From: Eledone cirrhosa | Taxonomy: Eukaryota | Length of the DNA: 64,000 nt | Direction: 5' to 3' | Assembly: GCA_964016885.1 (NCBI GenBank) | Contig: OZ024765.1 | Span: forward strand, 18,538,001-18,602,000 | Shown here: positions 22,124 through 28,077 of the stretch, one piece after another | Layout of the letters: every line of letters starts with the position of its first letter | How positions within the stretch are numbered: position 1 is the stretch's first letter | Notes under the pieces: model-generated | What the model was told of the DNA's origin: nothing | What the model saw: only the letters and a program-made list of their open reading frames with translations | Database searches by the model: none | Position numbers and translations under genes: made by a program

Positions 22124-22294
22124 TATGCTTTCCAGCATAGTTACGTCCCTTTAAGATCTGAGTTCAAATCCCGCCGAGGTTCACTTTGCCTATCATCCTT
22201 ACGGGGTCGATAAAATAAAGTACCAGTAATGCAGTGGGTAATTGCTGGCCTTGTGCCTAAAGTAGAAACAATTATTATTATTATTATTATTATT
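22124..22294 (+). mobile_element. 5'-truncated SINE S1 with (ATT)8 tail
   Basis: atgctttccagcatag...GAGTTCAAATCC...gccttgtgcctaaagtagaaaca(att)8; preceded by (ATT)n. Confidence 0.93.
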
Positions 22295-22432
22295 GACGAA
22301 AGTGGATGTACGTTTTTTGAAGCTCCATGAGTAAGCAATTTTTTGAGGATTAATTGTGGAGAATTGTTTATTTTTTTGTTCCGCTGAAGCATTATAAGAC
22401 ATTCATTTGTATCCTGTGAAGGAATAACTCAT

Positions 22433-22460
22433 AATATTTGGGCCTTTTGGCCCAAATATT
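22433..22460 (+). promoter_or_regulatory. Perfect 12-bp stem-loop in the LINE 5' UTR
   Basis: aatatttgggcc-tttt-ggcccaaatatt, 48 nt upstream of the ORF1 ATG; function unknown. Confidence 0.5.
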
Positions 22461-22507
22461 TGAACTTTATTTTGAAAAAAAATAATAATTTTTTTCTCAA
22501 AAAAAAC

Positions 22508-24363: not shown

Positions 24364-24392
24364 ACCTTTCCTCTCCCATTCATCCTGCCAGC

Positions 24393-27300
24393 ATGGCCAT
24401 AAGAGTAGGAAGTTTAAATGTTCGTGGCCTGGGGTCGCCCTGGAAGCAAGGTCACTTGCTCAACGACCTCAGGTCACTAGGAATGGATGTAATTGCCATC
24501 AGCGAGACCAGAATTTCCGACACACGCGCACTGGCGCCGATTTTCGACGATTATCAGATCTTTGCATCTGTTAGTCGGCCGGGAATGGGAGGTGGAGTGA
24601 CTGTGCTGTTTAGGAAATGTCTGGATCTCGAGGTAAGGTCAATCTTCCGGGATCCTGACGGAAAGTTGGTGGTCCTGGACGTGAGCAATAGCGAAGGTGG
24701 TGCCTTTAGACTGGTGGCCGTCTACGCCCCTACTGGGGCCGGTCGGCCGGACTTCTTTAGGCGCCTGGAAAACTTTCTGCTTACGTCTCGCCCTTTACTG
24801 TTAATAGGGGATTGGAATGGCATCTTAGAAGCACGCTGGGATTGTGTGGGAGTATCTGATAGGAGCGGGGGGTGCAAAAGCCTCAAGTACCTGATCAGCC
24901 AGTTTCAACTGTCTGACAGGTACCGACTAGATTTCCCTAATGCGCCAGTATGGACCTGGACCAATCGCATAGGGTCATCTAGATCGTACATAGATAGGAT
25001 TTTCATTAGGAAAAGAGATAGAAATAGTGTAGGATGTCCACATTTTAAAACGGTTGCCTATTCAGATCACAAGCTTGTGATCTGTATGGTCGACCTAGAT
25101 AAGACACGTAGGTTAGGACCTAGCTACTGGAAGCTAAACATGTCGTTTCCGGCACGTAAAGCTTACAGGGACCGGGTCAACAACTTAGTTAAGCAAAAGT
25201 TGACAGGGGGGGTTGTCAACAACAGGTGGTGGGGGGCACTCAAAAGAGAGATTAGAGCAACCTCGATAGGATTTAGCAAAGAAGTAGCAATAGAGAAAAA
25301 TAGAAAGGAGGAGGGGCTGATAGCTAAGTTAGACGAGGCTATTTGTAGTGGCATTGCAACAGACGTGCTAGCGGCGAGAATGGCACTAGACCATTTCTAC
25401 AATGCGAAACACGAAGGTTGCATTGTCAGAGCTAAGGCACGTGCTCTGAGGAACGAGGGAACCAAAGCTGCCCGATGGGCTCGCTTTGCAGAGACGCAGC
25501 GTGGAAATAAAACCACAATTCGGTCTTTGACGGATCGAGATGGACACGAACTGAGCGATTCCAAGCAGATGTGTGAGGCCTTTCGCCAGCACTTTGCTCG
25601 ATTGTTCGGGAGGATGGGTGAGTCGGAGACGGCGGCGGACTTCAGTCCCTACCTCGACGGCTTGCCACGCCTCTCGACGGCCGACGCTGAGCGCTGCGAA
25701 GAGCCGATAACATCAGTCGAAATTCAGGACGCCCTTGTCGGCTGCTCGAGTCGCAAGTCACCCGGTTTGGATGGTCTGCCCTACGAGCTTTACGTAAATA
25801 TGTCAGACTTGTTCTCCGATCTCCTCGAAGCGCTCTACTGCAACTGGCAGCAGAACGGGAGCATTCCCAGTTCTGTGAGCCGTGGCGTAGTGACGCTGAT
25901 AAGGAAAGACGAGAACAAGAGGGACACACTAGATAATTTCAGGCCCATAACCCTGCTCAACACAGAGTTTAAGATTTTGGCCAAGGTGTTAGCGAAAGGG
26001 TTGGCGCTTGTCGTCAAAGATTTGGTTGGGGAGGCGCAAACTTGCGCAATCCCGACCAGGTCCATACACGACAACCTCCACCTCATGCGATACATCATAG
26101 AGAGGGTTGGGTGCAAACCTGGCTTCGGTGGGGCTCTGATCAATTTAGATCAATCGAAAGCATTCGATAGGGTCGACCATCGGTACTTGGAGGCTGTCCT
26201 CGAGGCGGCTGGCTTCGGCCCCGTCTTCAGAAGCTGGATCGCTGCAATGTACAGCGGCATCTGCTCGGTGGTCAAAGTTAATGGCCACCTCTCGGAACCG
26301 TTTCAGATCTCTCGATCGGTCCGTCAAGGGTGCCCTCTCTCCTCACTTCTGTACGTATTGACTCTTGAGCCTCTACTGCGGAAGCTGGAGTTGTTGCAGG
26401 GCATCCCGCTCGAACCGGGACGTAGAAAGGCTGCGTCCGCTTATGCGGACGACATCACCGTGATGGTGTCGGACACCTCGGAAATCGAGGTGATCCGCAC
26501 CCATTTGGAGGAATATGAAAGGTTGACGGGAGCAAAACTTAACCCGGAAAAGTCGGTGGGCTTGCAGCTCGGCACCTGGAGAGGCAAGTCCATGCCGTCC
26601 AACAGCGTCGTTGGGCGCTGGACAGACGGACCGGTAAAGTTGCTCGGAGTTTGGTTCGGACCAGACCTCCAGGTGGATAAGAATTGGGACGAGGTGACGA
26701 GCAGGATAGCCAACCTCACCCAGAAATGGGCTGAGAGAAAGCTATCACTGAAAGGGTGGGCGGAGGTGGCGAACGCGTACATCGCGTCCGTCATCTACTA
26801 CCGCCTGACCGTCGTGCCTTGCCCCCGTCCACGCCTCGCCAATTTGGAACGGCTCCTTTTCAAATTTTTGTGGAGGGGACGGGTCCCGTTGGTGAGGCGG
26901 TCCATCTGCTGCCAGCACCCTCTTCGTGGAGGGCTGGGCATGCCGTGGCTAATGATGCGCAGACATGCGCTGAGGCTGCGACATCTCCAGATATTTTGCC
27001 TAAACGGTGAACAGGTGTGGTCGCCGTTTCTTAGACGGGCCTTTCCGCAGCTCATCTCTTTGACTGAGCTGCAGTCCTGGGTCAAGAAGAGACCGAGACT
27101 GGGCGACTGGCATCTGGAATGTTGCCAGGCGCTCACTGCACTCTGCAAGGTGGGCAATGCGGTCAGTGGAACTTCCACTCAAGATTTCTATAGAGGATTA
27201 GTGGAGGGCAAGTACGATGACGTACTAGGAGAGGCTCTAGGCGTCAACGAAGTAGAACTGACCAGTATGTTCCGGAGGACTTTCGAGCCGGGGACGATGG

Positions 27301-27812
27301 ATAACTTCCAGAAATCCCTCGCTTGGGAGTGCTACCGGGGGGCGCTGCCGGTTCGGGATAAACTCTACAGGCACGGAAGTGCTGTCAGACGAACCTGCCC
27401 GAGATGCGCGCAGAGCGACGAAACCGTTCTGCACGCACTCGTCCAGTGTCCGTGCATTGCTGACTTGTGGGGTTATGTCGAACAGCTATTGTCGCGTGTA
27501 GAACGGATCCGGCTATCGTCCGAGTCCATAGTGAAGATTGACCCGCCGCCTTCTTTTGGTCAGGAAGGGCAGGCAATTTTCCTCTGCCTGGTGGCAGTAG
27601 CGAAAGAGGTTGCATGGTGGACCAGGTTGAAAGGACTGAAGACAGACACTTTTCTCTTCGGCCAATCCCTCATCAACTTCTTCAAGTTTCACTTGGAAAG
27701 GAAGGTGAGGGTGGAGAGAGAAGTGTTGCCCCCCAGTACATTTACGGAAAGGTGGGTGAATGTGGCGAGAATGGCCCGCGTGAGTGGACCTACTCTGATC
27801 ATGCGCCTGTAG
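24393..27812 (+). CDS. LINE ORF2: AP endonuclease + reverse transcriptase + C-terminal CCHC zinc finger (L1/Tx1 type), 1139 aa
   Basis: APE motifs SLNVRGL, ISET, VYAP, GDWN, YIDR, SDH; linker GPSYWKLN; RT motifs SPGLDG, FRPITLLN, LDQSKAFDRV, VRQGCPLS, YADD, LLGV; GGLG; CPRCAQSDETVLHALVQC. Confidence 0.97.
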   Translation: MAIRVGSLNVRGLGSPWKQGHLLNDLRSLGMDVIAISETRISDTRALAPIFDDYQIFASVSRPGMGGGVTVLFRKCLDLEVRSIFRDPDGKLVVLDVSNSEGGAFRLVAVYAPTGAGRPDFFRRLENFLLTSRPLLLIGDWNGILEARWDCVGVSDRSGGCKSLKYLISQFQLSDRYRLDFPNAPVWTWTNRIGSSRSYIDRIFIRKRDRNSVGCPHFKTVAYSDHKLVICMVDLDKTRRLGPSYWKLNMSFPARKAYRDRVNNLVKQKLTGGVVNNRWWGALKREIRATSIGFSKEVAIEKNRKEEGLIAKLDEAICSGIATDVLAARMALDHFYNAKHEGCIVRAKARALRNEGTKAARWARFAETQRGNKTTIRSLTDRDGHELSDSKQMCEAFRQHFARLFGRMGESETAADFSPYLDGLPRLSTADAERCEEPITSVEIQDALVGCSSRKSPGLDGLPYELYVNMSDLFSDLLEALYCNWQQNGSIPSSVSRGVVTLIRKDENKRDTLDNFRPITLLNTEFKILAKVLAKGLALVVKDLVGEAQTCAIPTRSIHDNLHLMRYIIERVGCKPGFGGALINLDQSKAFDRVDHRYLEAVLEAAGFGPVFRSWIAAMYSGICSVVKVNGHLSEPFQISRSVRQGCPLSSLLYVLTLEPLLRKLELLQGIPLEPGRRKAASAYADDITVMVSDTSEIEVIRTHLEEYERLTGAKLNPEKSVGLQLGTWRGKSMPSNSVVGRWTDGPVKLLGVWFGPDLQVDKNWDEVTSRIANLTQKWAERKLSLKGWAEVANAYIASVIYYRLTVVPCPRPRLANLERLLFKFLWRGRVPLVRRSICCQHPLRGGLGMPWLMMRRHALRLRHLQIFCLNGEQVWSPFLRRAFPQLISLTELQSWVKKRPRLGDWHLECCQALTALCKVGNAVSGTSTQDFYRGLVEGKYDDVLGEALGVNEVELTSMFRRTFEPGTMDNFQKSLAWECYRGALPVRDKLYRHGSAVRRTCPRCAQSDETVLHALVQCPCIADLWGYVEQLLSRVERIRLSSESIVKIDPPPSFGQEGQAIFLCLVAVAKEVAWWTRLKGLKTDTFLFGQSLINFFKFHLERKVRVEREVLPPSTFTERWVNVARMARVSGPTLIMRL

Positions 27813-28077
27813 GCTGGTGAATTCGAGAAGGAGAGGGGTGCCCTTCCCGGGTGCCCTAGGAGCGTCGGGTGGCTCAGGACTGGTGGGGTGCTTGAGTCAA
27901 CCCTGGGTGGTGATCCCTCTTATTGGGGAACTTTCATTGTTGTATTTTTATTGTTATTTTGTTTTTTTGTTATTTATACTTACTCGATCTCTATGTAAAC
28001 CCCCACTGTCCCTGTCTATTGTGTTGTCCCCTATATGTCGGCCCTTGTGGCCAATAAATGAAATCATTATTATTATT

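Follow-up and report, generated by a model that had tools for sequence, protein, structure and literature searches.

In a 64,000-nucleotide window of the Eledone cirrhosa genome (GenBank assembly GCA_964016885.1, contig OZ024765.1, positions 18,538,001 to 18,602,000 of the forward strand; coordinates below are those of the window), we analyzed a near-full-length long interspersed nuclear element (LINE) of the L1 group, which lies within an ATT microsatellite at 22295 to 28065 on the plus strand (its exact 5′ end is presumptive). The LINE family is young and multicopy, and a soft form of ATT preference is likely. The 3′ terminus of the LINE resembles that of the short interspersed nuclear elements (SINEs) on either side of it, a more surprising lead in our view than the target claim itself. 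To account for these observations together, we propose that a young, likely Tx1-type LINE, whose RNA would end in a hairpin followed by (AUU)n, primes on nicked (AAT)n, prefers ATT without strict confinement to it, and mobilizes the neighboring SINE. Our confidence in this combined explanation is evenly divided.

The interval from 21698 to 28283 is a single ATT microsatellite with four insertions: a Dong/R4-like fragment on the opposite strand, two SINEs, and the LINE. At the left outer end, an ATT/AAT microsatellite (21698 to 21747) lies on the 3′ side of the Dong-like fragment (21748 to 22097, minus strand), which is the 5′-truncated 3′ end of an element with a reverse transcriptase (RT) and a restriction-like endonuclease and continues, on the minus strand, into (AAT)n. 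The remaining parts are on the plus strand. A (TAT)10 run (22097 to 22126) leads from the fragment to the left SINE, a 5′-truncated copy (22127 to 22270, with the shared terminus at 22247 to 22270). This SINE is followed by (ATT)8 (22271 to 22294), which represents SINE tail or target duplication and is likely the target run that the LINE entered. Beyond the LINE, (ATT)4 (28066 to 28077) represents its tail and/or a 12-bp target-site duplication, and the right neighbor is also a SINE (28078 to 28260, shared terminus at 28237 to 28260), which lacks ∼6 to 9 nt of its 5′ end and contains GTTCAAATCC, which we take to be a B-box-like motif. The right SINE has its own run, (ATT)7 plus AT (28261 to 28283), at the right outer end. 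ATT therefore bounds the compound locus at both outer ends, and ATT runs lie on either side of the left SINE. The original prediction had placed the LINE between (ATT)8 and (ATT)4, and both runs are exactly where it put them; it had also recognized the left SINE but overlooked the right SINE with its (ATT)7 and the Dong/R4-like fragment. Such runs are rare in the rest of the window, where ATT/AAT runs of at least four units occupy 90 of 57,199 bp (0.157%, n = 7) and the longest is under six units. The span between the flanking ATT runs (5,771 bases) occurs once in the window and has a GC content of 51%, compared with 28% for the window.

The LINE encodes two open reading frames (ORFs). ORF2 (24393 to 27812, plus strand) is open over 1,139 amino acids (aa) and matches the Pfam families Exo_endo_phos (E = 2.6e-13), RVT_1 (E = 2.1e-28), and zf-RVT (E = 1e-8). 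It has the layout of the L1 group, with an N-terminal apurinic/apyrimidinic endonuclease (APE; aa 7 to 226), a central RT (aa 509 to 753, with the motif YADD), a C-terminal zinc finger (aa 974 to 1026), and no RNase H, and its catalytic motifs align with those of the L1 endonuclease (EN). Among solved structures, human L1 ORF2p comes closest (E = 1.7e-54 over aa 4 to 854), with R2 at E = 2e-21; this is a comparison of L1 with R2 alone, as the 16 PDB matches include no RTE, CR1, L2, or Tx1 ORF2. A protein of Argonauta hians, 67% identical, is the closest named entry in the databases, in keeping with an octopod host, and no labeled Tx1 reference was among the database matches to ORF2. In the ESM Atlas, ORF2 received no clade name, and a piece of ORF1 matched only low-recognition bacterial look-alikes. 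ORF1 (22508 to 24363, plus strand) is spread over three frames in this copy. A CCHC zinc knuckle in ORF1 is typical of Tx1 and not known from vertebrate L1, and ORF1 carries the knuckle C-x2-C-x4-H-x4-C at 23467 to 23508, recognized in the sequence itself, with a Pfam zf-CCHC_4 score (E = 0.012) under the curated cutoff. In the RT motif LDQSKAFDRV, the Q is presumably Tx1-like. On the basis of domain layout and Tx1-like motifs rather than a labeled tree, the element likely belongs to Tx1. In the region encoding the ORF1 N terminus (22612 to 22877), a degenerate 48-bp repeat is present in 3.9 copies, along with an AAC-rich tract that encodes an Asn/Ser/Thr-rich sequence.

The original prediction allowed that the left ATT run might be merely the tail of the neighboring SINE. 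The run does directly follow the SINE; however, each of nine other SINE copies checked is followed by 0 to 2 perfect ATT units, versus 8 after the left SINE, and both flanking SINEs seem to predate the LINE, with mismatches to their closest window copies at 6 and 10 of 143 positions. Judged by sequence divergence, the LINE is likely younger than both flanking SINEs and the youngest insertion at the locus. Because the (ATT)8 run is longer than other SINE tails and the LINE is likely younger than the SINEs, the LINE likely entered this run. The simplest order of events for this one locus would be an earlier SINE-(ATT)8-SINE arrangement, with the LINE arriving last and generating a 12-base duplication. 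If instead there were no targeting, ATT would be tail only, insertion would be near random, and the window copy would sit beside a SINE tail by chance or through survival at a harmless spot. The direct junction of the left run with the SINE end fits this explanation, as does the fact that this is a single copy picked out for its appearance; a tail alone would also place ATT at the 3′ end family-wide, and Waldo-A/B have been suggested to build up passively close to microsatellites (PMC3812793; here and below, statements on the literature refer to the portions of the sources available to us). Yet chance landing in a run of four or more ATT units would happen ∼1 time in 600 or more rarely, the compound locus is bounded by ATT at both outer ends, and the ATTA found on the target side of SINE duplications (see below) points to ATT-guided insertion for the same terminus. 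We consider the absence of targeting very improbable.

Other copies of the family were sampled in raw reads or contigs of four sequencing runs (X1, X4, X7, and X23). In the X23 raw reads, depth at 28059 was 9,540, and 5,653 reads extended beyond (ATT)4, with another five ATT units in their consensus (agreement, 0.66), which implies at least nine ATT units after most sampled LINE 3′ ends. Indels near the 3′ end were carried by reads with 55 to 76 different starts; therefore, many loci contribute. ATT at the LINE 3′ end is family-wide. A further 3,590 X23 reads matched the LINE solely from 27980 on; a sister subfamily therefore keeps the last ∼85 nt, and the terminus has outlasted the rest of the 3′ untranslated region. 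The X23 library resembles a double restriction digest with SphI plus an AATT cutter, with starts at the SphI site at 26938. An AT-rich loose end at 26863 was considered as a set of 5′-truncation junctions and rejected, since it falls on an AATT restriction site.

In X1, two single contigs differed from the LINE at 0 of 515 and 1 of 314 bases at a word depth near 2,100, versus depths of 7 to 12 for diverged contigs. This ratio suggests some hundreds of near-identical LINE copies, a rough figure because depth is not copy number. Summed X1 contig depths, which were 150-fold higher at 28059 than at 27914, were left out of this estimate because fragmented contigs inflate them. High-depth X1 family contigs contained 20 and 35 extra bases in the ORF1 region relative to the window copy. 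These bases restore an ORF1 length divisible by three (636 codons) and account arithmetically for both frameshifts, which makes it likely that deletions confined to the window copy caused the frameshifts. Some point changes, too, are specific to this copy, since nearly all X1 depth carried the other base at 10 of the 40 differences listed (there were 3,718 further ones). In X4, the family reached a far greater summed depth and showed fixed ORF1 differences peculiar to that run, while X7 yielded only depth-2 contigs, nearly identical to the window copy. Neither LINE relatives nor terminus matches were detected in prokaryotic genomes or viral contigs. A metagenome scan returned 80 loci with best segments 23 to 44% identical, too distant to bear on the target question; one of these 80 had an ATT run of five or more units.

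Four of the nine other SINE copies, representing three independent sites, are flanked by duplications of 11 to 19 bp whose upstream, target-side copy begins with ATTA (one of the four was called by eye over a one-base gap), and ATTA occurs at 0.8% of positions. Among RTE elements, there is precedent for an initial duplicated base that follows the tail repeat (PMC13295347). If the SINE reports the machine, its habits are loose, with short ATTA sites that lie mostly outside long microsatellites. These sites bear on the possibility that the LINE is strictly microsatellite specific, its APE reading (AAT)n as Kibi and Koshi read TC and TTC, so that long ATT runs would house nearly all copies and the flanking ATT, left and right, would be target rather than tail. 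Such specificity has precedent in the clade (PMC4494074, PMC3812793) and suits the placement of the window copy in a long ATT run, as well as the X23 consensus, whose nine or more units far exceed the 0 to 2 units after ordinary SINEs. However, SINE copies with the same terminus enter short ATTA sites, and the X23 reads may be enriched for tail-to-tail junctions between LINE and Dong-like elements, because no AATT precedes the SphI site (21870) in the reversed Dong-like end. The APE specificity loop, moreover, has the same length as that of human L1 and is two residues shorter than that of Tx1L, although loop length does not predict specificity (PMC1950540). Strict specificity is therefore, in our estimate, rather unlikely. 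What holds of the predicted ATT-specific family is a preference, indicated by the rarity of the run, the family-wide 3′ ATT, and the contrast of 8 with 0 to 2 units; strict specificity would go beyond this evidence, given that the SINE sharing the terminus resides mostly at short ATTA sites.

The LINE and the SINE share their ends in register. The last 26 nt of the LINE (28040 to 28065) match the last 24 nt of the SINE, with 18 of 24 SINE bases matching. The LINE end consists of a predicted four-pair hairpin with the loop CTTGT (28040 to 28052), a 13-nt spacer that includes AATAAA (28053 to 28058), and then the ATT run; the SINE end has a predicted hairpin of three to four pairs around an identical loop, again 13 bases, and then ATT. 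When alignments were anchored at the 3′ end, the score of the LINE against the right SINE was reached by 0 of 1,000 dinucleotide shuffles and 1 of 864 internal LINE 40-mers, and that against the left SINE by 8 of 1,000 and 3 of 864. The motif GGC-CTTGT-GCC occurs 11 times in the window, at 10 SINE ends and the LINE end. The zero chance expectation of the terminus pattern was not counted, as the pattern had been built from both sequences.

A priming model would connect the terminus with the target. Cleavage of transcripts takes place 10 to 30 nt downstream of AATAAA, which in the LINE lies six to seven bases before the ATT run; a transcript that runs past this signal and is then cleaved would keep a few AUU units at its end. 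ORF2p would bind the CUUGU hairpin and so select its own RNA. Nicking of the AAT strand by the APE domain would release an ...AAT-3′ end able to pair with the AUU tail, in the way that L1 uses T-tracts to prime on poly(A). In the ensuing target-primed reverse transcription, the AUU tail would play the role that poly(A) has in L1, giving a graded ATT preference that is strongest in long runs. The SINE could use the LINE's enzyme. Each insert would end in ATT and carry an ATT-initial duplication, creating two new ATT landing sites per insertion, which would explain the nested SINE-LINE-SINE cluster. We infer all of the enzymatic steps.

Several points weigh against our explanation. On the LINE side, the full copy is a single one, the X23 flanks are a biased sample from a digest-like library, and most X23 reads are <90% alike and represent sister subfamilies. 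The read evidence covers the 3′ side alone, so target ATT and tail ATT are inseparable family-wide. On the SINE side, five of the nine other copies show no clear duplication and none has three or more perfect consecutive ATT units at its site, a setting in which the LINE reads mostly lie; SINE and LINE may be on separate machines or differ in cis versus trans priming. As for the terminus, the match is short, the anchored test was chosen after the match had been seen, and unanchored local alignment was not significant (256 of 5,000 shuffles and 7 of 376 internal windows). The predicted hairpins do not exceed shuffled sequences in stability (z = −0.13 to 1.02), and compensatory change was absent in nine SINE copies, in which 26 of 27 cells pair. 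The LINE could accordingly prefer ATT while its likeness to the SINE end is coincidental or captured, the SINE having been moved by another ATT-tailed LINE clade. Besides the short match, the weak unanchored statistics, and the lack of covariation, this alternative can draw on the rarity of tail sharing between L1-clade LINEs and SINEs; known tail pairs are mostly CR1 and RTE, and the L1 clade accounts for 3 of 58, with plant and algal examples (PMC3747384, PMC3472496). RTE and CR1 families have also been recently active in Octopus vulgaris (PMC13282606). It must contend, however, with the same loop, 13-nt spacer, and tail repeat in register, and with a sister LINE subfamily that retains the terminus. 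The Dong-like element was itself considered as the SINE's partner and rejected, having the opposite tail (AAT) and an end that does not match in register. We regard a coincidental terminus as improbable.

A mobilizing LINE with ATT preference, as we propose, has partial counterparts in known systems. Described Tx1-clade targets comprise Tx1D, U2, U5, 5S, transposons, and TC, TTC, TTCC, and TTTC repeats, and target preference is common in the clade (PMC4494074). Kibi, Koshi, and crocodilian Tx1 families on (TC)n, (TTC)n, (TTCC)n, and (TTTC)n are likewise APE-RT elements of the L1 group with a simple repeat on both sides (PMC4494074, PMC3812793); the Eledone LINE differs in its ATT repeat, in the 3′ end it has in common with a SINE, and in being evidenced by one full copy. 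The criterion applied to microsatellite families is a target repeat in >20% of flanks, 5′ junctions included (PMC4494074); for the LINE, ATT was seen at the 3′ side in one biased run. The original prediction had called ATT unfamiliar as a Tx1 target, which agrees with our finding no Tx1 case, although ATT/TAA is known for Dong, the sole element for which TAA repeats are listed as target in the portions of PMC3812793 available. Neither an ATT- or AAT-targeting Tx1 nor an octopus Tx1/SINE pair was found in the literature, and Repbase or Dfam may hold an entry.

Among SINE/LINE pairs, the stringent UnaL2/UnaSINE and ZfL2 systems resemble the present one in a common 3′ hairpin and a short tandem repeat in place of poly(A) (PMC4176376, PMC3747384), but they belong to L2/CR1/RTE clades, whereas here the LINE is of the L1 group and the ∼25 nt in common are known from sequence alone. 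Maize LINE1-1_ZM and Chlamydomonas L1-1_CR are L1-clade elements that, as here, have a structured 3′ end in common with SINEs; these pairs are plant and algal and end in poly(A), in contrast to the ATT-ended animal LINE (PMC3472496). Tx1-Mar, a Tx1-type LINE, has been proposed to mobilize SINEU, a SINE with the same target preference. That pairing was made on targets only, with SINEU ending in poly(A) and no LINE matching the SINEU-1 3′ half, whereas here the ends match (PMC4494074).

In Octopus vulgaris, 13 L1-Tx1 families with 421 insertions have been recently active, and SINEs make up 11.6% of the genome; the recently active SINEs are almost all unclassified, with no partner named in the portions of the source available (PMC13282606). 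The O. vulgaris genome contains 80 L1-Tx1 families. If the LINE and the target rule of such a SINE could be named, the nested clusters of insertions in octopus genomes, and some of their microsatellite load, would be accounted for. A SINE/LINE case in the animal L1 clade bears on whether stringent 3′-end recognition is ancestral in L1/Tx1, and the intact ORF2 of a young family makes tail priming versus endonuclease specificity directly testable. In its widest form, our proposal is of an animal L1/Tx1-group LINE in which stringent recognition of a hairpin and AUU tail has replaced poly(A) priming, which targets ATT microsatellites, drives a major octopus SINE, and, in the opposite orientation, has its target repeat in common with Dong; octopus ATT runs would then be self-renewing insertion hubs of two unrelated retrotransposon machines. 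This wider form is tentative, and we lean toward doubting it.

Dong belongs to the R4 clade, in which a single ORF carries an RT, CCHC, and a restriction-like endonuclease. The left fragment is 70 to 75% identical to the C termini of single-ORF RT proteins of ∼1,130 to 1,160 aa that have no APE hit in Pfam; no named reference was matched, and its layout and flanks fit a putative Dong/R4-like element. AAT follows the Dong-like end and ATT follows the LINE, which places the two in one microsatellite in opposite orientations. Dong uses the same microsatellite class as the LINE (PMC3812793), and a Dong-like fragment lies in the same locus; the two differ in their unrelated endonuclease types, in the single ORF of Dong, and in orientation. 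Recent Dong-R4 activity is documented in O. vulgaris (PMC13282606, Table 1). A second Dong-like 3′ fragment (57249 to 57611, minus strand, within the region 57182 to 57800) lies beside an ATT-rich tract, and a SINE copy is joined to its truncated end in the same layout as at 21698 to 22294.

The SINE also occurs in tandem. At 51390 to 51705, two tandem copies are accompanied by three copies of one 11-bp ATTA-initial duplication, indicating repeated insertion at one site, and at 45120 to 45737, six SINE 3′ halves of ∼100 bp each are arranged in tandem on the minus strand with short ATT-like spacers. Membership of the flanking SINE in the MetaSINE superfamily was considered first and dropped: bivalve MetaSINE sequences (supplement part 1 of 4) looked unlike it by eye, and two short motifs were not found in that part of the supplement. 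Rfam and ARAGORN gave no match for the SINE head or the locus.

Among distant APE-RT elements 23 to 25% identical to ORF2, 7 of 14 loci checked had a poly(A) end joined to the same 18S rRNA position (L036:8937-8980, L039:9156-9200, L042:8823-8859, L043:8623-8660, L045:7422-7460, L048:115 and 8031-8060, and L050:7658-7700). In L048, the 18S junction motif is present at both ends, resembling a target duplication. These elements look like an 18S-rDNA-specific family of the L1 group. Elsewhere in the window, positions 1 to 11800 contain dispersed and tandem duplications (1 to 1053 versus 5705 to 6744 at 97.8% identity and 3439 to 4499 versus 4566 to 5653 at 91%), a gap of 200 N lies at 18727 to 18926, and a 31-bp satellite occupies 32622 to 33561.

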